A stretch of DNA of 64,000 nucleotides from the NCBI GenBank assembly GCA_031256235.1, contig JAIRQZ010000032.1, positions 5,224 through 69,223 of the forward strand, written 5' to 3'. The DNA comes from Christensenellaceae bacterium (lineage in GTDB: Bacteria > Bacillota > Clostridia > Christensenellales > UBA1242). Below, one piece after another: positions 29,732 through 39,439 of the stretch. Position 1 is the stretch's first letter; each line of letters begins with the position of its first letter. The translations under genes and the position numbers were made by a program. The notes beneath the pieces are model-generated. The model made no database searches, was not told the DNA's origin, and saw only the letters and a program-made list of their open reading frames with translations.

Positions 29732-32700
29732 TTATGCTTCTTTGCGACGCAAAAAGTACAAAACAACAAGCCCAGCAACCGCAACAAGTCCAACTCCGCC
29801 ACCGATAAGCCCGAACAACAAGCCATTTGGTGCGCCACCTTTAGTTCCGCCACCCGTGCTTGCTTGAAGTGCGCCACTTGCAGGCTTTGTGCGTACTGTA
29901 TCAACAAATACGATGCCTTCGTTATAGTTTTCGTCGCCGATAAATTTCATGTAAATGTCATACTCTTCATCCGAACGCAAATTTTCAAACGAGCAATCGG
30001 CATACCATTCTGCATCTTCGGCCAAACTTTGACCTTTTCGTGTGATTGAGTATTGCACCTCTTGACCGTTATAGTAATGTTTGCCGTCGTTGCCGATTTC
30101 AATGCCTGTTTCGATTATAACAAGGTCAATTGCGTTTTTATCGCTGTTAACTTCACTGAATTTGCCGTTCCATTCTGTGCTTGGAGCCTTTGCGATAACC
30201 AATGTTTTGCTTTCGGTTACTTCGCAGTAATTATCGTTGCCCGTATACGTGACGACAACGGTGTATGTTCCAACTGCGGTAGGCGCGTTGTCAAGTTTAG
30301 TCGCGTCCTTATAGTATTCGACTGTCGAATTGTCGTATGTGCCTGTGATACTTGTTTTTACAGTTCCTGTTTTACCATAAACCCAACCATCGGTTCCCGT
30401 AATTGTAAGAACTCCTGTTGCGCGTTCAATCACGATTGTAACGGCCGAATCAAACACGGTTTCGGCGACATCGTCTGTGCCGTGTACTGTGATTACCACA
30501 ATATATTCGCCCACAAGAGTTGGGATTTCGGTAAATGTTTCTGTTGTACCGACTTTGACAAATTCGATAGTATAATCGTCAAAGTATTCACTTAAGTCGA
30601 TAACGATGCTGTCGCCGTATGTTGCCTCGATGACAAGGTCAACAAGTTCGTCGGGCAATGCATAGAACGGCAAATCCGAGATAGTGAATTTGCGTGTAGC
30701 GGTGTGCGACAGATAGTTCGCGGACTCGGCCCAAACGGCACGAATCGTATAGTCGCCAGGGATAAAGAATCCGTCTGCATCAAGTGGCAACGCCGACATC
30801 CAAATACCGTCCTCGCCCGCGTATTCAAAGGTCGGGATTACACCTGACCATTCTTCGACGAATGTTGTGGTGCTGTATGGGTTTGCAATTTGGTCGAATC
30901 TCCAACCAGTAATCCTTACCGAGCCATTACCTACGCCCTTTGCAATCACAAGTTCGCCCACAATAAATGCCACGCTTGCGTTGTAATAAGTTCCCGCCGA
31001 CAATGTTACTTCGACTTGATATGTACCCGCGTTGACGGGCTTGATATCCGAGTCGTAACCGTTGCCGATATAGCGAACGCTTACAATGCCGTCGTATTCA
31101 GGGAACACAGGTGCGTATTCAACCAACACATTATAGACATTACCGTACACTACGCCAGAGGCGATTTCGACAAGTACGTCCGCGGTGTTGATGTCGTGTT
31201 TTTGGATTGAGAACGTCAAAACAATATCGGTATAAACATAATTTGTACCTTCAAGCGTTATTTTAAGTTGATAATTTCCTATGATTGTAGGTTGTATGCC
31301 TTTGGCTAATCTTACGCCAAATTCATCAAAAGGACGGCTACCCGTTGCAATGTCGGTATAGTCGGCCGTGCATGAACTTACATCGCCGAATGCATTAGCA
31401 TAGTCAACGATGATGCTGTGTTCCAACTCGCCGTATTTCCATGTGATGTTCTCTCCACCAAAGACTTGTACTCCGCCGAAAGTGACAGGCACGATACCCG
31501 CTTTTTTAGAAACAGTAACCGTTACGATTTTGTTTTCAACTTTTTTATAATTGCCGTTCGGGTCTGTCCAAGACGCAAAGAATTTTTGCTCGCCAGTTAC
31601 CCCGCCCCAGGTTACATCGTCAACAACAAGACTTTGTCCCGCATCCCATGTCCAGTTTGCAGGCAACTTGGCATTGGTGAGGGTATCGCCATACGTCGCG
31701 ACGATTCCTGTCGGAGTACCACCCGTGACTGCATCGGTTGCAGTGCCGACAGTTATAGTAAACAGTTGGTTTAATTCACCGACTTTAACGCCAGAATTGT
31801 TTATGATATCGGCCGTCATAAGGTAATCTGTGCCGACCGAGTTCGGCAATGCCGTCGAGCCGTTGTATCTTATAGTGTTGCGAGTTGCGGTGATGTTTAC
31901 GTTGTTGGCATCTCCCCACTCCGCAACATCGGTCGGTAAGGTCGGTACAAAGTTGGTAACGCCATAAGCCGTACTAATCGCGCTTCCCGCATTGACAACG
32001 CCGTTCGCGGTCAAAACAGGTATTGAATAAAATCGGGCTTCGTAAGCGGTTTGAACCAAGTCAAAATCCGAGGTATTAAGTGACAATTTTTTGATTGGGT
32101 CTCCGTGGCTGTCCCATTGAACAAAGAAGTTGTTGGCTTTCCAATTTGCGCTGACAATATTATTGCGAACATTCAAAAATGTTCGTACAGGATTGCCGAT
32201 TTTTACTTCAAGGCCAGCAATATCGGCCGTGGAAGTCGCCGAAACCGTACCCTTGTTTGTGTCGTTGGACGCGAAAGTGATGCTGTTTGGAATTTCGGTA
32301 TAAGTGGTTGTATAGGTAAGGCCTTCGAAAACTGCGGCAGATTGCATGTTTGCGCTTGCGGTGCTGTCGTATCCGCTACAATGGCTGGACAGTTTAACCC
32401 AAAATCCGCCATTCGTTGCGACGTTGACCATTTGTTCCGAAGTCAATGAATATGAAAGGCTTCGGAAAGCGTTCCAGTTATTATTTGCGGTTCCTGTGAA
32501 ACCATAGTGCGTTCCCGCTCCGCCCGAAGTAGAGTTGCGCGGTGAAGAATAAATATCTCCCTTGCGACTGTCGGACATACGACGTGTATCCATTCCTGGA
32601 TTTGATGCACCGCCACCGCCATAGTTAAAGGCAAGCGGGCTTGTATTTTGTTTGTAACTTAAGTCAAAAAAGGTCTCGGTACCACCGTGGGCCGTTGTTG

Positions 32701-33985
32701 TGATGCGGTCTATGTTGGCGGCAACACCAAAATAAAATGTGAAATCAAAAGTACGCAAAACTCCGCGCTTCATCGCTTCGTTCAAATCACCGCCTACATT
32801 AACCCATACTTGCAAAGCCATAGTCGCGGCTTCTTGGCTTCCAAAAAGGTCGTAACTGTTGGATTTATTAAGATAGTTGCTGTATGCAAGTGCATTGCCT
32901 TGGTTGCTGTTTTGCGGGCCGCGTTGACGGATGTCATATGACCCAGTCCATTCGGTTGTGCCCATTCTTTTCGTGGAACCGCTTGCCGCCAAATCATTCA
33001 AGTCCATTACATATCCGCTTGAGGCATTGAACGGAGTGTTGAATACTCGGCGAGTGTCGGTACCTTTTTTGCTACCATCGCCGATGTTCCCGTTAAGCCC
33101 CGAACCCGAAGAGATGATGTCTTGTTTAAGTTTGGTTTCCGAAGCGCCCTTGATACCTTCCCTTGGGTTGCAAGTAATGCCTTCCAAAACGCAAGCGGCT
33201 TCAGCCCACAAAGTGCCGGAGCCAGAGTTATTTGCAAACGCGAACATTTTGACCCAAAAGTATCCACGGCTTGCCAATTCTGTTAACTTTGTGCCTGTGA
33301 AATTGTAATAAGATTCACGCCAACCGCAAGCATTTTTCGAATTATTTTGCACCATACCTTCGTTGCGTTGGGTGCCTGTGCTTGGGTTAAGTGTCCTTGT
33401 GCCTGTGTATGCGCTGTAGATATTGCCTGCACCGCGAAGGCTGTTTGCGTCGGTTGCGACGTCGGCAGAGTTCAAATCAAAAAAGCCTTGCAATGTCGCC
33501 CCGCCACCGTTCGAGAAGGCATATATTGCATATGTAAATCCGAACTCGACGCTTGTTACTGTTTTGTTGTTGATTGCGGACAAAAGGTTACCGTTGACCG
33601 CGACTTTGACTTGGACAGACTTTGCAAAGTTCACACTTCCGCCAGAGTTGCTTGAACCAAAGTCTGTATACGCAACAGGCGCAGGTGCATACCCGTTTCC
33701 AATCAAGGTCGAGTTTTCCGGACCACGCTTACGCATATCTTCGTTTATGTAATTGCTTGTCCCAAAATACGGCCTTACTGTTGTACCGACCAAGCCGTAC
33801 CCAACATTCGAAAAACTTACATCGTTGTTGCGGATTACATTTCCGCTTCGTTGTGCGGTGTCCGCGGCAGCATGCAGTTTGGCACCGCCAAAATCGGCAC
33901 CGCCAACCATTGCCACGCCAAACGCCAACATTGCTATCATTACTATGCCTGCGAACGCAGACAAGACATATTTAAATTGTTTCAT
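29732..33985 (-). CDS. 1417-aa cell-surface protein (signal peptide, duplicated novel N-domain, MBG-like Ig repeats, C-terminal TM anchor)
   Basis: N-terminal signal/TM. C-terminal GLLFGLIGGGVGLVAVAGLVVLYFLRRKEA. Repeated ...GTYxVxVT...NY...xIxKA modules (e.g. VGTYTVVVTYTGNDNYCEVTESKTLVIAKA). GAGGAG RBS. Confidence 0.8.
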   Translation of the reverse strand: MKQFKYVLSAFAGIVMIAMLAFGVAMVGGADFGGAKLHAAADTAQRSGNVIRNNDVSFSNVGYGLVGTTVRPYFGTSNYINEDMRKRGPENSTLIGNGYAPAPVAYTDFGSSNSGGSVNFAKSVQVKVAVNGNLLSAINNKTVTSVEFGFTYAIYAFSNGGGATLQGFFDLNSADVATDANSLRGAGNIYSAYTGTRTLNPSTGTQRNEGMVQNNSKNACGWRESYYNFTGTKLTELASRGYFWVKMFAFANNSGSGTLWAEAACVLEGITCNPREGIKGASETKLKQDIISSGSGLNGNIGDGSKKGTDTRRVFNTPFNASSGYVMDLNDLAASGSTKRMGTTEWTGSYDIRQRGPQNSNQGNALAYSNYLNKSNSYDLFGSQEAATMALQVWVNVGGDLNEAMKRGVLRTFDFTFYFGVAANIDRITTTAHGGTETFFDLSYKQNTSPLAFNYGGGGASNPGMDTRRMSDSRKGDIYSSPRNSTSGGAGTHYGFTGTANNNWNAFRSLSYSLTSEQMVNVATNGGFWVKLSSHCSGYDSTASANMQSAAVFEGLTYTTTYTEIPNSITFASNDTNKGTVSATSTADIAGLEVKIGNPVRTFLNVRNNIVSANWKANNFFVQWDSHGDPIKKLSLNTSDFDLVQTAYEARFYSIPVLTANGVVNAGSAISTAYGVTNFVPTLPTDVAEWGDANNVNITATRNTIRYNGSTALPNSVGTDYLMTADIINNSGVKVGELNQLFTITVGTATDAVTGGTPTGIVATYGDTLTNAKLPANWTWDAGQSLVVDDVTWGGVTGEQKFFASWTDPNGNYKKVENKIVTVTVSKKAGIVPVTFGGVQVFGGENITWKYGELEHSIIVDYANAFGDVSSCTADYTDIATGSRPFDEFGVRLAKGIQPTIIGNYQLKITLEGTNYVYTDIVLTFSIQKHDINTADVLVEIASGVVYGNVYNVLVEYAPVFPEYDGIVSVRYIGNGYDSDIKPVNAGTYQVEVTLSAGTYYNASVAFIVGELVIAKGVGNGSVRITGWRFDQIANPYSTTTFVEEWSGVIPTFEYAGEDGIWMSALPLDADGFFIPGDYTIRAVWAESANYLSHTATRKFTISDLPFYALPDELVDLVIEATYGDSIVIDLSEYFDDYTIEFVKVGTTETFTEIPTLVGEYIVVITVHGTDDVAETVFDSAVTIVIERATGVLTITGTDGWVYGKTGTVKTSITGTYDNSTVEYYKDATKLDNAPTAVGTYTVVVTYTGNDNYCEVTESKTLVIAKAPSTEWNGKFSEVNSDKNAIDLVIIETGIEIGNDGKHYYNGQEVQYSITRKGQSLAEDAEWYADCSFENLRSDEEYDIYMKFIGDENYNEGIVFVDTVRTKPASGALQASTGGGTKGGAPNGLLFGLIGGGVGLVAVAGLVVLYFLRRKEA
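32306..33823 (-). repeat. internal tandem duplication of a ~220-240-aa domain within the surface protein
   Basis: Residues ~55-272 versus ~318-560 share ordered anchors: MRKRGPENS/IRQRGPQNS, FFDL/FFDL, GYFWVKM/GGFWVKL, VLEGIT/VFEGLT. Confidence 0.6.
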
Positions 33986-34079
33986 TAAAGGATTCTCCTC
34001 GAAATTTATGTGAATTTTTAAATATATTATATTTTAAAACCGGATTTCGCCGATAATAGATATATATTACACGAAACTA

Positions 34080-34108
34080 TTGCTAATGTCAATACCTTTT
34101 GGTATATT
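34080..34108 (+). promoter_or_regulatory. sigmaA-type promoter for tRNA-Leu
   Basis: TTGCTA (34080-34085) - 17 nt incl. TGg - TATATT (34103-34108), 9 nt before the tRNA 5' end. Confidence 0.45.
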
Positions 34109-34117
34109 AAGTAACTT

Positions 34118-34202
34118 GCGACCGTGGCGGAACTGGCAGACGCGCAGGACTAAGGATCCTGTCTTTCACGAGGTGGAGGTTCAACCCCTCTCGGTCGCAC
34201 CA
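34118..34202 (+). tRNA. tRNA-Leu, anticodon reads AAG (A34), type II, CCA encoded
   Basis: Acceptor GCGACCG/CGGTCGC; D stem GCG/CGC; anticodon stem CAGGA/TCCTG with 7-nt loop CTAAGGA (U33-AAG-G37); long variable arm; T arm GGAGG-TTCAACC-CCTCT; A + CCA. Confidence 0.85.
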
Positions 34203-34270
34203 AACGGAACAAATAAGAACCAGATTTGTCCCCAAAAGAAAGCAATTGACTGTCTTTTTTATATAAACTT

Positions 34271-34299
34271 TTGACACTTTTTTTACCATGGTTTAGAAT
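34271..34299 (+). promoter_or_regulatory. promoter of MTase-MTase-nuclease operon
   Basis: TTGACA (34271-34276) - 17 nt - TAGAAT (34294-34299). ATG 34310 is 10 nt downstream with no SD (very short leader). Confidence 0.5.
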
Positions 34300-34309
34300 A
34301 AATATAACT

Positions 34310-34927
34310 ATGGCGCGAAAAACATTTGATAATGCCAAAAAAGCAAAGAATGACGAGTTTTATACACAACTCGCGGATATTGAAAATGAAATGAGACATT
34401 ATCGCAATCAGTTTCGCGGAAAGGTTGTATTCTGCAACTGTGATGACCCTTATGAAAGTAACTTTTTTAAATACTTCGCCATGAACTTTAAGTTTCTTGA
34501 ATTAAAAAAACTTATTGCCACTTGTTATATCGGGTCGCCAATTGCGAACAAAGAACTATCCTTGTTTCCACATGAAAGTGTGGAAAATAAAACAACAAAA
34601 GCACCGCATAAGATTGTTATCAATGAAGCCATTGATGAAAACAAAGACGGCGCGTTTGATTTACAAGACATTGTAACGTCACTTACAAATAATAAAAAGA
34701 ACACATTGACGCGACTGAATAGTGACGGCGATTTTCGTTCGGCCGAATGTGTCGCATTGTTAAAAGAAGCCGACATTGTAGTAACAAATCCGCCATTTTC
34801 ATTATTCAGAGAATATGTTGGGCAACTTGTAGATAATAAAAAAGATTTCATTATCGTTGGTAATATCAATGCTATTACGTATAAAGATATATTCCAACTT
34901 ATAAAAGAAAATAAATTGTGGCTTGGC
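34310..34927 (+). repeat. tandem paralogous repeat, copy 1 (catalytic module of M1)
   Basis: Codons 1-206 of M1 against codons 1-206 of M2: 165/206 identical residues by hand alignment, no indels, offset 1108 bp. Confidence 0.85.
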
Positions 34928-35437
34928 AATACGCATCGGAATCGCGGGCTTGGCATGTTTTTTGATATTCCCGAAAGTGTAAATACCGAAACTGCGACTC
35001 GATTAAAAGACGGAAAAATATTTATTGGCGGTGCAGTTTGGTTTACAACATTAGATACACCAATCAATCATCAAAAGATGACTTTTTATAAGAATTATAA
35101 AGGGAATGAGAGCGAATATATTAAATACGACAATTATGACGCGATAGAAATCAGCAAAACTAAAAATATTCCTGACGATTATTATGGTGCTATGGGCGTA
35201 CCAATCACTTTCCTAAATAGTGGATATAATCAAGAACAATTTGAGATATTAGGGTTCACGCACAGAAATGACCCGTATAAATTAAAAACAAAAATATATA
35301 CAAAAAATGACGCGGAAAACTTTAATGATTTGAATGGAAGCCCAATCATCAGAAGTGGCGATGATGTTAGATTTGCTTATATGCGAATAATTATTAAACG
35401 GAAAAGGGAAACACGGAATGGCAACAAAAAACTTTGA
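34310..35437 (+). CDS. N6-adenine DNA methyltransferase, EcoRI-methylase-like (M1)
   Basis: KNDEFYTQLADIE...GKVVFCNCDDPYESNFFKYF N-terminal region as in EcoRI-type MTases (by recall). Catalytic motif IV VVTNPPF at 34787-34798. ATG 34310 (MARKTF); the track TTG 34271 is the -35 box. Confidence 0.85.
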   Translation: MARKTFDNAKKAKNDEFYTQLADIENEMRHYRNQFRGKVVFCNCDDPYESNFFKYFAMNFKFLELKKLIATCYIGSPIANKELSLFPHESVENKTTKAPHKIVINEAIDENKDGAFDLQDIVTSLTNNKKNTLTRLNSDGDFRSAECVALLKEADIVVTNPPFSLFREYVGQLVDNKKDFIIVGNINAITYKDIFQLIKENKLWLGNTHRNRGLGMFFDIPESVNTETATRLKDGKIFIGGAVWFTTLDTPINHQKMTFYKNYKGNESEYIKYDNYDAIEISKTKNIPDDYYGAMGVPITFLNSGYNQEQFEILGFTHRNDPYKLKTKIYTKNDAENFNDLNGSPIIRSGDDVRFAYMRIIIKRKRETRNGNKKL

Positions 35438-36035
35438 CGGGGCAAAGCGGAATAAAGCCGATGAGTTTTACACTCAACTTTCTGACATTGAAAAAGAAAT
35501 GCGTTTTTACCGTGAGCAGTTTCGTGGCAAAGTCGTCTTTTGCAACTGTGACGACCCATTTGAAAGTAACTTTTTCAAATATTTCGCAATTAACTTCAAA
35601 TTTCTCGAACTAAAGCAACTGATTGCAACTTGCTATATAGGCTCGCCAATCGCGAATAAAGAACTGTCTTTGCTCCCACATGAAAGTGTGGAAAATAAAA
35701 CAACGAAAGCGCCACACAAAATTGTTATAAATGAGGCGGTTGACGAAAACAATGACGGTGCTTTTGATTTGCCAGATATTATTTTATCTTTAACCAAAAA
35801 TAAAAACAACACATTGACACGCTTGAATGATGACGGTGATTTCCTCTCCGCTGAATGTATTGAATTGTTAAAACAAGCAGATATTGTAGCCACTAATCCA
35901 CCATTTTCATTATTTCATGAGTTCATAGACCTAATCATAAAACATAAAAAACATTTTATCATTATAGGGAATCAAAATGCGATAACGTATAAAGACATAT
36001 TTGCTCTTATAAAAGCAAATAAATTATGGCTTGGC
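35418..36035 (+). repeat. tandem paralogous repeat, copy 2 (catalytic module of M2)
   Basis: See copy 1. DNA stretches are near-identical (e.g. ccacatgaaagtgtggaaaataaaacaac in both). Confidence 0.85.
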
Positions 36036-36497
36036 TTATCCATGAATGGCAGTAACCGTTGGTTTAGGGTTCCAAATGACTATGCGTTTAGTGAAAATGC
36101 AAAACACAAAGTTGACGAACAAGGGTATCATTACATTTTTGTAAACAATGTTGTATGGTATACAAACATGGATACACCAAAAAGACATGAAAGAATTACT
36201 TTTTATAAAAAGTATTCAAAGACAGAACACAAGCACTTTGATAATTACAATGCAATAAACGTAGACAAAGTAACAGACATACCTACTGATTATTTTGGTG
36301 ATATAGGTGTGCCTATCTCGTTTATGCACAAATATAATCCAGAACAATTTGAAATTGTTGATGCCTTAAATCGTTACGCATTATTAGACACTCAAAACAC
36401 TAACGAAGCGGTTCGTAATGCAAAATCGCATACTTGTAATATTAACGGTATTGCCACATACTTTAGAATTGTCGTTCGCAAAAAGGAGAATACATGA
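35418..36497 (+). CDS. N6-adenine DNA methyltransferase, EcoRI-methylase-like (M2)
   Basis: Paralogue of M1 (KADEFYTQLSDIE..., VVFCNCDDPFESNFFKYF, IVATNPPF at 35895-35906). Divergent C-terminal ~150 aa. The start overlaps M1 by 20 nt. Confidence 0.85.
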   Translation: MATKNFDGAKRNKADEFYTQLSDIEKEMRFYREQFRGKVVFCNCDDPFESNFFKYFAINFKFLELKQLIATCYIGSPIANKELSLLPHESVENKTTKAPHKIVINEAVDENNDGAFDLPDIILSLTKNKNNTLTRLNDDGDFLSAECIELLKQADIVATNPPFSLFHEFIDLIIKHKKHFIIIGNQNAITYKDIFALIKANKLWLGLSMNGSNRWFRVPNDYAFSENAKHKVDEQGYHYIFVNNVVWYTNMDTPKRHERITFYKKYSKTEHKHFDNYNAINVDKVTDIPTDYFGDIGVPISFMHKYNPEQFEIVDALNRYALLDTQNTNEAVRNAKSHTCNINGIATYFRIVVRKKENT

Positions 36498-37588
36498 AAA
36501 TAAAGTTACACGAGATAACAATTCGCGAAGTAGTCGAAAAGTACGTTGATAATGACGAAGAAGGTGTTATCGGTTTTGATGGCAAATTAAACATTCGCCC
36601 CAAATATCAACGTGAATTTGTTTATGACGACAGAAAGCGTAGTGCGGTTATTGAAACAATTCGCAAAGATTTCCCGCTTAACGTAATGTATTGGTGTAAG
36701 AACGAGGATGGTACATTCGAGGTTCTGGACGGACAACAGCGAACAATTAGTTTTTGTCAATTTATCAAAAGTGACTTTTCAATAATGGCCGACGGCCACA
36801 CAAAATATTTTCATACAATGACCGAAACAGAGAAAAACCACATCTTGAATTACAAATTGTTTGTTTACATATGCGAAGGCAACGACAAAGAAAAACTTGA
36901 TTGGTTCCAAATTATCAATATTGCGGGCGAAAAATTGACCGACCAAGAATTACGAAATGCCGTTTACACGGGTACATGGCTATCGGATGCAAAATTAAAG
37001 TTTAGTAAAAGCAATTGCGTCGCATATTTGCATTCAAAAGATTATGTCAGTGGGGCTACAATTCGACAGGAGATACTTGAACTTGCTTTATTATGGATTA
37101 GCAAAGGCAATATCGAAAAATACATGTCCGCACATCAACATGACCCAAACGCAAATGAATTGTGGACGTATTTCAGAAGTGTAATAGATTGGGCGCGTCT
37201 TACTTTCCCCAAAACACGAAAAGAAATGAAGGGTATCAACTGGGGCGGGCTTTATGACACTTTCAAAGACAAAATGTTTGATACAAATAAACTTGAACAA
37301 GAAATCCAAAAACTTATGATTGACGATGATGTAACAAATCAAAAAGGTGTTTACTATTATGTTTTGACACGTGACGAAAAATATTTGAATATTCGTGCAT
37401 TCAGCGAAAGTCAAAGGCGGACGGCATTTGAAAAACAAGAAGGTATTTGTGCTAAATGCAAAAAGCAATTTCAATTAAATCAAATGGAAGCAGACCACAT
37501 AACTCCATGGAGTAAAGGTGGTAAAACAAGCAACGATAATTGCCAAATGCTTTGCCAAGAATGCAACCGCCGAAAATCGGCGATATAA
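36494..37588 (+). CDS. DUF262 (ParB/Srx-like, DGQQR) - HNH endonuclease fusion protein
   Basis: N-terminal FEVLDGQQRTISF (36728-36742). C-terminal zinc HNH CAKCKKQF...EADHITPWSKGGKTSNDNCQMLCQECNRRKS (37448-37585). AGGAG RBS. The ATG overlaps the M2 stop (ATGA). Confidence 0.85.
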   Translation: MKIKLHEITIREVVEKYVDNDEEGVIGFDGKLNIRPKYQREFVYDDRKRSAVIETIRKDFPLNVMYWCKNEDGTFEVLDGQQRTISFCQFIKSDFSIMADGHTKYFHTMTETEKNHILNYKLFVYICEGNDKEKLDWFQIINIAGEKLTDQELRNAVYTGTWLSDAKLKFSKSNCVAYLHSKDYVSGATIRQEILELALLWISKGNIEKYMSAHQHDPNANELWTYFRSVIDWARLTFPKTRKEMKGINWGGLYDTFKDKMFDTNKLEQEIQKLMIDDDVTNQKGVYYYVLTRDEKYLNIRAFSESQRRTAFEKQEGICAKCKKQFQLNQMEADHITPWSKGGKTSNDNCQMLCQECNRRKSAI

Positions 37589-37591
37589 AAC

Positions 37592-37639: not shown

Positions 37640-39439
37640 ATGAACATAAGGAACATCGCAATCATCGCGCACGTAGACCATGGTAAAACAAGTTTGGTGA
37701 ACGAACTATTGAAACAGGGTAACGTTTTTCGCGAAAATCAAAAGGTCGACGACCGCGTCATGGACAACAATGCCCTTGAGCGCGAGCGCGGAATCACGAT
37801 ACTTGCAAAAAATGCAAGTTTCGAATACAAAGATGTAAAGATAAATGTCATCGACACCCCAGGCCATGCCGACTTTGGCGGCGAGGTCGAACGCGCATTG
37901 TGTATGGCGGACGGGGTCTTGTTGTTGGTGGACTCGTTCGAAGGGCCCATGCCCCAGACTCGGTTTGTTTTAGAAAAAGCCATCGCGCTTGGCCACAAAA
38001 TCATCATCGTCATCAATAAAATCGACCGCCCCGATGCCCGCATTAAGGAAGTAAGCGACGAGATTTTGGAATTGTTGCTTGATTTAAATGCAACCAACGA
38101 ACAACTTAACAGCCCCATAATTTATGCAAGCGCCCGACTTGGCATTTCGTCGGAAAGCCCGACAGTCCGAGGTACAAACTTGGTTCCGCTGTTTGAAAAA
38201 ATCATCAGTTATATTGACGAGCCAAAAACAATAAAAGGCACATTCAAAATGTTGGTGTCAAATACTCAACACAGCGACTATTTGGGCAAAATGGCCGTCG
38301 GCAAAATTACAAGCGGGACTCTTAAATCAGGCGAGCAAATTGTAATAGTCGATTACAATAACACAAAACTTAAAACCACCGCCAAAGTCACTGGGCTGTT
38401 CGAATTTTCGGGGCTTTCGCAAAAAGCCGTAGAGGTCGTTCACGCAGGCGATGTCGCAATGGTCGCGCTTACCGCGCCGATACAAATCGGAAGCACGATA
38501 TGCTCCCCTGCCGATGCCACCCCTATAGAATTTACAAAAATAAGCGAACCCAGTGTTGAAATGGCTTTCATGGTAAACGACAGTCCGTTCGCAGGCAAGG
38601 AAGGCAAGTTCGTGACAAGCAGAAACCTGCGCGAGCGGTTGTACCGCGAGGCCGAGCGAGATATAAGTTTGCGCGTCACGGACGGCGAAACCACTGAAAA
38701 ATTTATGGTCGCAGGTCGCGGGGAAATGCACCTTGGAATCTTAATTGAAAACATGCGCCGTGAAGGATACGAATTCGCGGTATCCCAACCCAAAGTTTTA
38801 TACAAAACAATCGACGGACATAAGTGCGAACCTATCGACAAGTTTGTTGTCGACGTACCTGAATCGGCAGTGGGCGCCGTCATGGAAAAAATGGGTCTTC
38901 GCAAAGGTGAACTTTTGCAAATGACGACAATCGGAAGCCGTAACCGATTGGAATTTTTGATTCCATCGCGCGGACTTTTTGGATACAAGTCTGAATTTTT
39001 AACGGACACACGTGGCGAGGGCGTCATGTCAAGCGTGTTTCATTCTTATGAAAAGTACAAAGGCGAAATCTCCCGTCGATTCACGGGAAGCCTTATCGCG
39101 CACGAAGCGGGCGATTCAAACGCATACGGATTGTACCATTCGGAAGACCGTGGGACATTATTTATCGGCGCAGGCGTCCCCGTATACGAAGGCATGGTCG
39201 TCGGCGAAAATCCTAACGGCAATGACTTGGTCATCAATGTGTGCAAACGCAAACAATTAACAAACATGCGCTCCAGTTCAAGTGACGAGGCACTGCGCCT
39301 GACCCCGCCAAAGATTATGAGTTTGGAAAACATACTCGAGTTTTTGGCCGACGACGAATTAATGGAAGTCACCCCAAAAAATGTCCGCATCCGCAAAAAG
39401 ATTTTGGACAAAGACCTGCGCATGAAGGCAAATAAATAA
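37640..39439 (+). CDS. typA: translational GTPase TypA/BipA
   Basis: IAIIAHVDHGKTSLV, DTPGHADFGGEVER, NKIDRP, and the BipA-type C-terminal domain. ATG 37640 with RBS is preferred over the track start 37592. Confidence 0.94.
   Translation: MNIRNIAIIAHVDHGKTSLVNELLKQGNVFRENQKVDDRVMDNNALERERGITILAKNASFEYKDVKINVIDTPGHADFGGEVERALCMADGVLLLVDSFEGPMPQTRFVLEKAIALGHKIIIVINKIDRPDARIKEVSDEILELLLDLNATNEQLNSPIIYASARLGISSESPTVRGTNLVPLFEKIISYIDEPKTIKGTFKMLVSNTQHSDYLGKMAVGKITSGTLKSGEQIVIVDYNNTKLKTTAKVTGLFEFSGLSQKAVEVVHAGDVAMVALTAPIQIGSTICSPADATPIEFTKISEPSVEMAFMVNDSPFAGKEGKFVTSRNLRERLYREAERDISLRVTDGETTEKFMVAGRGEMHLGILIENMRREGYEFAVSQPKVLYKTIDGHKCEPIDKFVVDVPESAVGAVMEKMGLRKGELLQMTTIGSRNRLEFLIPSRGLFGYKSEFLTDTRGEGVMSSVFHSYEKYKGEISRRFTGSLIAHEAGDSNAYGLYHSEDRGTLFIGAGVPVYEGMVVGENPNGNDLVINVCKRKQLTNMRSSSSDEALRLTPPKIMSLENILEFLADDELMEVTPKNVRIRKKILDKDLRMKANK

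Follow-up and report, generated by a model that had tools for sequence, protein, structure and literature searches.

In Type IIS and other restriction-modification (R-M) systems that act at asymmetric sites, a pair of methylases (M1.X and M2.X) is conserved and required, and shuffling of target-recognition domains is known from hsdS of Type I and mod of Type III systems. GmrSD, BrxU and SspE are nucleases that combine a DUF262 with a DUF1524 domain (PMC4619093, PMC12065111, PMC12707154). Here, we examine a locus from a Christensenellaceae bacterium in which two genes for EcoRI-family adenine methylases, named M1 and M2, precede a gene, R, for a nuclease with DUF262 and HNH domains (Table 1). 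The locus lies in a 64,000-nucleotide (nt) stretch of contig JAIRQZ010000032.1 (GenBank assembly GCA_031256235.1; positions 5,224 to 69,223 of the forward strand), here called the window, whose own numbering is used. An earlier note, made from the window sequence alone, had singled out M1 and M2; they are indeed a pair, but the note missed the link to the nuclease gene. M1 and M2 are the methylase part of M1-M2-R, and the translationally coupled nuclease gene downstream defines the pair. M1-M2-R belongs to an R-M module that is very common and poorly described, of which M-M-R is a rare variant. The overall explanation that we favour, with a probability of about one half, is an acquired M1-M2-R island in which the methylases are cassette mosaics and M1 is a captured extra copy.

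Both methylases belong to Pfam family PF13651 (EcoRI_methylase), which M1 matches with 413 bits (E = 1.4e-123) and M2 with 442.5 bits (E = 1.5e-132) against a cut-off of 26.4, over profile positions 2–345 of 345. Both also match PADLOC MTase_II, and NCBIfam has no family for either. Their identities to M.EcoRI, for which we used the methylase encoded beside 'type-2 restriction enzyme EcoRI' in the Escherichia coli plasmid NZ_OW967970.1, are 46% (M1; E = 8e-94) and 43% (M2; E = 2e-92). M.EcoRI, which acts at GAATTC, is homologous to M1 and M2 over its full length and shares with them NPPF, DEFYTQ, CNCDDP, GDGDFRS, NLD..RH and a C-terminal Y.RI.IK strand, but it is shorter (326 amino acids, aa) and is encoded after its nuclease. 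R.EcoRI is an unrelated protein and not a DUF262-HNH nuclease, whereas R is one. As M1 and M2 retain NPPF (aa 160–163 in each) and all 36 columns found to be invariant across a family alignment of 112 sequences, neither copy looks dead, and both appear to be catalytically intact. AlphaFold2 (AF2) models of M1 and M2 had predicted local distance difference test (pLDDT) scores of 87.6 and 85.9, respectively. No PDB match to these models was found at E < 1e-3, and no PDB sequence match either, so the family is without a solved structure, and fold comparison was dropped as a route to the recognition domain.

R matches PF03235 (DUF262; E = 1.1e-19) and PF01844 (HNH; E = 2.2e-13), with PF14279 also found in the C-terminal domain, and its residues 1–362 align with positions 1–370 of the 372 in the PADLOC REase_II profile PDLC03418 (E = 8.6e-136). 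It carries DGQQR and the D-H...N...N residues. Like GmrSD, BrxU and SspE, R has an N-terminal ParB-like DUF262 domain with DGQQR and a C-terminal His-Me finger nuclease, but in R the latter is a canonical HNH domain (PF01844/PF14279), and the Pfam scan of R found no DUF1524, which sets it apart from the GmrSD/SspE type (Type IV). Because it is always coupled to an N6-methyladenine (m6A) methylase, we read R as modification-blocked or 'self'-sensing, not modification-dependent; R-M logic in which methylation blocks the nuclease is likely.

Close homologues of R number more than 8000, and approximately 120 of the best are 72–78% identical to it; at E ≤ 1e-30 its homologues form 495 clusters at 50% identity. 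The contexts that were read comprise 10 metagenome places, 80 genomes, plasmids of cultured bacteria and one Flavobacterium phage, and in every one an EcoRI-family methylase gene lies directly upstream of the R homologue, usually overlapping the nuclease start. The 80 genome loci span Bacillota, Chloroflexota, Lentisphaerota, Patescibacteria, Planctomycetota and others. This module, annotated as 'adenine-specific methyltransferase EcoRI family protein' plus 'DUF262 domain-containing protein' and by PADLOC as MTase_II and REase_II, shares its gene families, gene order and translational coupling with the locus in the window. Its nucleases are 62–79% identical to R in the five named phyla and 40–61% identical on plasmids and phage; the closest relatives of R among the compared loci are 77–79% identical. 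Full-text searches of the literature yielded no specific description of the M-R module and no characterised enzyme behind the PADLOC REase_II model. In the phage, vB_FspS_laban6-1 (L175:1781-4143), a PF13651 methylase gene overlaps by 4 nt the gene for a DUF262 nuclease that is 40% identical to R. The Lactiplantibacillus plantarum plasmid NZ_CP060181.1 (L174:2180-4282) encodes a 700-aa protein, annotated only as 'dcm', in which a Dcm-type cytosine-5 methylase is fused to an EcoRI-family adenine methylase domain that is 43% identical to M2; it has the look of an enzyme with two methylase domains that serves an asymmetric site.

Where the window has two methylases, the widespread module has one. 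A single methylase gene lies directly upstream of R in all of the approximately 75 genome and look-up loci that retain the upstream region, and two methylases per nuclease were seen at none of the 80 genome loci. Of the 80 metagenome loci that a search with M1 retrieved, 63 are plain M-R, and the remainder are truncated by the contig or are among a few multi-copy loci: one M-M-M (L115), one M-R-M (L125) and three with parts of two modules; L153 and L166 are arranged R...M-R. The M-M-M locus (L115:126-2661, on a 2.7-kb contig) has three tandem EcoRI-family methylase genes (two of 336 aa and 375 aa, with the third truncated where the contig ends), the N modules of which are 73–80% identical to each other while the tails are unrelated, and it is the only other multi-methylase M-M array met among the surveyed loci. 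Two features of Type II systems are present in M1-M2-R, namely adjacent M and R genes in one transcription unit and a nuclease from a recognised REase family. A 'cognate' methylase could not be assigned by co-phylogeny with R; the N modules paired with the closest R relatives are roughly equidistant from M1 (0.66–0.71) and M2 (0.62–0.66).

M1 and M2 are 59% identical as whole proteins, a similarity that chance would not produce (BLASTP E = 3e-152). Over aa 1–206, the hand alignment in the earlier note was exact (165/206 identities, no indels), and the strings it quoted stand at the same positions in both proteins (CYIGSPIANKELSL at aa 72, PHESVENKTTKAPHKIVINEA at aa 87, KLWLG at aa 202 and EQFEI at aa 309). 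The sharp divergence past aa 206 was also borne out, identity falling to 42% over aa 207–316 and 31% in the tail. The note further described two 618-bp direct repeats 1108 bp apart as a substrate for homologous recombination. The spacing, measured start to start, is 1108 nt, but as DNA the two segments are just 75.4% identical (466/618), with a longest identical run of 29 nt (34568 / 35676), which makes them a marginal substrate at best. The dN/dS comparison that it proposed was run and proved uninformative: the Nei-Gojobori proportion of synonymous differences (pS) is 0.57–1.0 in every 40-codon window (0.76 for the N module and 0.75 for the C-terminal part), and synonymous divergence (dS) is saturated or undefined. 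Because this saturation extends over the whole alignment, dN/dS can neither date nor test the event, and does not tell 'same age, different constraint' apart from 'different age'. M1 and M2 thus have neither the high nucleotide identity nor the low synonymous divergence of a recent tandem duplication, and saturated synonymous sites, 75% nucleotide identity and a 29-nt longest run together argue against both recent duplication and ready recombination between the copies. The 80% protein identity of the N modules reflects purifying selection, not recency. The closest N module to that of M2 anywhere is that of M1 (80%; next best 76%), and the closest to M1 elsewhere are those of P0124 (82%) and P0147 (81%); overall, the N modules of M1 and M2 are 74–82% identical to those of P0124, P0147 and P0122. 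Only 2.5% of random family pairs have N-module identities of at least 0.80, and the three copies in L115 show a like excess (0.73–0.80), so co-resident copies share N-module ancestry or a common constraint.

The pattern of conservation followed by divergence is a property of the whole family, which any two members show. In a conservation profile built from 109 non-redundant M-R pairs, aa 1–195 and 246–315 are conserved and two segments are hypervariable, one at aa 196–245 ('var') and the other ('tail') starting at aa 316 and stopping just short of the last strand, with a further variable loop at approximately aa 81–100. When 275 family members were grouped by single linkage at 60% identity, the N module formed one cluster and aa 246–315 essentially one, with var falling into 28 classes and the tail into 93. 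The var class of M1 has 27 members, of which P0122 is 98% identical and further members 80–82%; that of M2 has 19, the best match being 68–69%. The M1 tail belongs to a class of 34, the closest members being 68% identical when the longer segment is the denominator and 79% when aligned positions are, and its relatives end approximately nine residues sooner (...KNKRL); the M2 tail is in a class of 64, with a best match of 63–77% depending on normalisation. Against this, M1 and M2 are 35% identical to each other in var and 28–34% in the tail, and M2 ranks 271st of 274 as a match to the middle segment of M1. The matches to M1 and M2 cassettes, 63–98% identical, occur in single-methylase systems elsewhere. 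Proteins that share the var or tail class of M2 have N modules only 57–66% identical to that of M2, and those that share the classes of M1 have N modules 58–62% identical to that of M1, except for P0122 at 78%. As cassette sharers have distant N modules, the N, var and tail segments have separate histories, and as far closer relatives of the C-terminal modules sit in other single-methylase systems, these modules were imported ready-made. We consider a mosaic, or cassette, origin of M1 and M2 highly probable.

Exchange is visible in pairs of related loci. L171 and L172, an allelic pair at one chromosomal locus of one metagenome with the same flanking genes, are homologous (88% nucleotide identity) through the upstream gene and the methylase gene to approximately aa 196, where homology breaks off. 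L171 is a plain M-R module, and L172 has the same N module (91% amino acid identity) with a different C-terminal module and a nuclease cut down to its last 90 residues. In a further four pairs (L029/L037, L052/L060, L069/L070 and L102/L104), the flank and N module are homologous at 81–88%, homology is lost over the C-terminal half of the methylase, and it returns at or within approximately 20 nt of the R start at 90–96%. The var cassettes also assort independently of the tail cassettes.

The favoured explanation can be set out as follows. R belongs to the widespread two-gene module in which the gene for a DUF262-HNH nuclease follows that for an EcoRI-family m6A methylase, with M2 in the canonical slot and M1 as the extra methylase. 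M1 and M2 share one lineage of N (catalytic) module, their var hairpins and tails having been drawn from different pre-existing classes. Cassettes move around the family by homologous recombination, since they are flanked by the conserved methylase N module on one side and the nuclease gene on the other. Gene content, intactness, mosaic ancestry, the rarity of the array and the recombination breakpoints are what the data show; that both enzymes methylate host adenine and thereby shield it from R is what we infer. They may well protect the same or overlapping sites, M1 being a captured second copy and not a required second-strand enzyme. Shared or overlapping sites are our best guess because in other loci the same nuclease tolerates many classes of cassette, but this part is tentative, falling a little short of an even chance.

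Whether the cassettes set specificity bears directly on that last point. Pairs of R homologues that are 93–98% identical carry methylases in which var is 26–47% identical and the tails are unrelated, and neither var nor tail identity follows that of any 30-residue segment of R (Spearman 0.0–0.18). Among 33 near-identical-R pairs, no R position differs in more than 48%, and none was found to co-switch with var class. The co-variation of M and R recognition parts found in Type II systems is therefore not seen here, which is still compatible with that type if var and tail do not set specificity. Retargeting, as the earlier note envisaged it, is in tension with near-identical (93–98%) nucleases beside unrelated cassettes. 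Our best reading is that the cassettes may vary while the sites at which the nuclease requires protection stay the same.

Several observations weigh against shared specificity or against the wider explanation. The var cassettes within a class are 80–98% identical and discrete, and AF2 models the var segment of M2, with good confidence, as a structured long beta-hairpin. In M.EcoRI, Tyr204 photo-crosslinks to recognition-site DNA, and the substitution H235N alters bending and specificity. The M.EcoRI gene sequence places Tyr205 within the var segment and His236 within the conserved NLD..RH, which fits a numbering that omits Met1. From the cross-link in the homologous segment, var could be a DNA-reading element, and M1 and M2 might then differ in specificity. 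The exact M1 and M2 proteins are known from one contig only. In addition, the methylase gene is disrupted beside an apparently intact nuclease gene in L001–L005, L032, L042 and L061, which on classical Type II logic would not be easily tolerated. The lesions are a T8 frameshift seen in five assemblies (L001:5047-5056 and its counterparts in L002–L005) and a frameshift at a G12 tract (L032:4159), both with a full-length nuclease, a methylase pseudogene (L042:3916-4851) and a methylase deleted to its last approximately 90 residues (L061:4585-4854), each of these two next to an intact nuclease. The nucleases of these loci keep essentially all of the 103 near-invariant residues. A G10 tract lies inside another family methylase gene (L050:4625), and no simple-sequence repeats were found in 161 kb of nuclease genes.

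A further repeat, (AGAGC)x8, lies inside the methylase tail of L120 (4164-4330). All three frames downstream of it encode the LYDR(I/V)VI(K/R)RK strand, and just one of the three terminates beside the nuclease start. The three-frame C-terminal strand suggests that a functional methylase has to be maintained, whereas arbitrary sequence is tolerated in the variable part of the tail. That part accepts the pentanucleotide repeat and out-of-frame sequence as long as the last strand (LYDRIVIKRK) is restored, which under classical Type II logic counts against cassettes that set specificity. It is possible that a gain or loss of repeat units would leave the methylase whole and alter M-R translational coupling, amounting to a 'safe' phase switch for the nuclease.

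These data bear on four other explanations. The earlier note had read the pair as a duplication followed by retargeting of the recognition domain. What stands of this is a mosaic of two intact paralogous EcoRI-family methylases with a shared front-half lineage and different C-terminal modules; duplication with subsequent divergence in place does not. A local tandem duplication whose C-terminal halves then diverged where they stood, possibly under positive selection, to give two new specificities would explain why the N modules of M1 and M2, at 80%, fall in the top 2.5% of family pairs, why M1 has the closest N module to M2 anywhere, and why the independent L115 array repeats the pattern. It does not explain a var segment in M1 that is 98% identical to that of P0122 and 35% identical to that of M2, nor the rank of M2 (271st of 274) for the middle segment of M1, and with dS saturated in both halves, differential divergence is not demonstrable. 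The segment phylogeny largely refutes this model, and we regard it as very unlikely. The alternative that the note raised, in which M1 and M2 serve the two strands of an asymmetric site, would make the locus Type IIS-like: R would read an asymmetric site and each methylase, both being required, would modify one strand. The likeness lies in two adenine methylase genes preceding one nuclease gene in a single operon, and the L. plantarum fusion to a Dcm-type methylase indicates that the family can serve asymmetric sites. However, the relatives of M1-M2-R need just one methylase. A single methylase is the rule in approximately 150 related loci with nucleases 62–79% identical to R, the pair is not conserved with the nuclease, and P0122, the closest relative of M1, itself sits in a one-methylase module. 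As these loci have one methylase per nuclease, a two-strand requirement is very unlikely as well.

The two remaining explanations let M1 and M2 differ in target. M2-R could be a classical operon and M1 a solitary methylase, the survivor of a second M-R module that lost its nuclease, marking a second, unrelated motif. Tandem modules do exist (M-R-M in L125, R...M-R in L153 and L166), L172 has lost R and kept M, the natural stop codon of M1 has seemingly been replaced at the M2 junction, and var cassettes form discrete, conserved classes. Yet if var classes stood for different specificities, the many pairs of 93–98% identical nucleases with unrelated var classes would be unviable under classical logic, and no R position co-switches with var class; we consider this explanation unlikely. 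Alternatively, R could be directed by the methylase in the manner of Type I and III systems, taking its target from the methylase or sensing m6A as 'self' as SspE does with phosphorothioate, so that M1-M2-R would hold two specificities for one nuclease. The resemblance to hsdS and mod is that discrete variable cassettes lie between recombination-proficient conserved flanks and assort freely beside a conserved nuclease, with some simple-sequence repeats; the difference is that the proteins here are Type II-like, without a helicase or ATPase Res/HsdR subunit. In keeping with methylase direction, R is uniformly conserved (mean 74%) beside hypervariable, discrete and uncoupled cassettes, cassette swaps leave R 90–96% identical at the nucleotide level, repeats and frameshifts fall in methylase genes beside an intact R and not in the 161 kb of R sequence, and multi-methylase arrays share one R (the window, L115). 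R also has an NTPase-like ParB/DUF262 domain, as in GmrSD, BrxU and SspE (PMC12065111). On the other side, the REBASE-derived PADLOC model classes R as a Type II REase, M.EcoRI (43–46% identical) works alone with an unrelated nuclease, the three-frame C-terminus of L120 suggests classical logic in which the methylase stays on and R expression varies, and methylase frameshifts may also silence R through polarity. We consider methylase direction unlikely, and it is just as unlikely that the EcoRI-family methylase and DUF262-HNH module is not classical Type II at all, with var and tail acting as exchangeable specificity modules as in Type I and III. An acquired island with cassette-mosaic methylases and a captured M1 is the reading that we retain.

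Taken alone, the pair adds one more R-M island from a gut Clostridia metagenome-assembled genome, and the cassette behaviour of the module is the more interesting lead. It concerns a family of EcoRI-type methylases, found in thousands of genomes, with two discrete, independently assorting hypervariable cassettes that recombination swaps beside a near-unchanged nuclease. If the cassettes set specificity, a common 'Type II' module would work more like Type I or III and would provide a simple natural scaffold with which both methylation and restriction could be re-targeted. If not, the family is a measure of how much the DNA-proximal parts of a methylase can vary while its target stays the same. 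Were methylase-directed reading true, M-M-R arrays would encode one nuclease serving two specificities.

The features of the locus are listed in Table 1. We take 34203-37590 (approximately 3.4 kb), beside tRNA-Leu, to be a horizontally acquired R-M island that holds a single M1-M2-R operon. GC content is 0.34–0.37 across the three genes versus 0.47–0.48 on either flank, falling from approximately 0.47 to approximately 0.35 over 34001-37000. M1 and M2 overlap by 20 nt and M2 and R by 4 nt (ATGA), there is one promoter-like site upstream of M1-M2-R, and no terminator-like site was found on the + strand between the three genes. The promoter-like site ends 10 nt 5' of the M1 ATG, so a putative M1 transcript would be leaderless or nearly so; the ATG is nested within a longer TTG-start open reading frame (ORF) that begins at 34271.

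Table 1. Features of the M1-M2-R locus, in window coordinates
Feature	Position	Strand	Remarks
tRNA-Leu (anticodon aag)	34118-34202	+	ARAGORN; left edge of low-GC island
Promoter-like TTGACA-17-TAGAAT	34271-34299	+	11/12 consensus positions, best in region; consensus match only
M1, EcoRI-family N6-adenine DNA methyltransferase	34310-35437	+	375 aa; extra, upstream copy
M1 conserved N module, aa 1-206	34310-34927	+	Includes presumed S-adenosylmethionine (AdoMet)-binding VVFCNCDDP and NPPF motif
M1 var cassette, aa 196-245	34895-35044	+	Family-wide hypervariable segment
M1 tail cassette, aa 316-375	35255-35437	+	Last ~9 codons read into M2 start region
M2, EcoRI-family N6-adenine DNA methyltransferase	35418-36497	+	359 aa; canonical position directly before R gene
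M2 conserved N module, aa 1-206	35418-36035	+	80% aa identity to M1 N module
M2 var cassette, aa 196-248	36003-36161	+	AF2: long beta-hairpin, strands 204-218 and 238-249
M2 tail cassette, aa 317-359	36366-36497	+	Tail class differs from that of M1
R, DUF262 (ParB-like, GmrSD_N) + HNH nuclease	36494-37588	+	364 aa; presumed restriction component

A search for att repeats around the island returned only a 20-nt imperfect inverted repeat (34276-34295 / 37674-37693, 90% complementary). This was judged to be due to chance; its right arm lies inside the P-loop coding sequence of the TypA/BipA-like GTPase gene that is the right-hand neighbour of the island. Palindrome avoidance was considered as a route to the recognition site and set aside, as the avoidance is genome-wide and not attributable to the island. 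In the window, GATC occurs 18 times against 174 expected, CCGG 21 against 193 and AGCT 3 against 86, AATT and GAATTC are only mildly low, and GATC, CCGG and AGCT are absent from the 3.4-kb island. This suggests long exposure of both lineage and island to 4-bp-cutter restriction systems. Directly to the left of the island, on the – strand, a 1417-aa ORF (29732-33985) has a signal-like N-terminal segment and a hydrophobic C-terminal anchor, and probably encodes a large surface protein.

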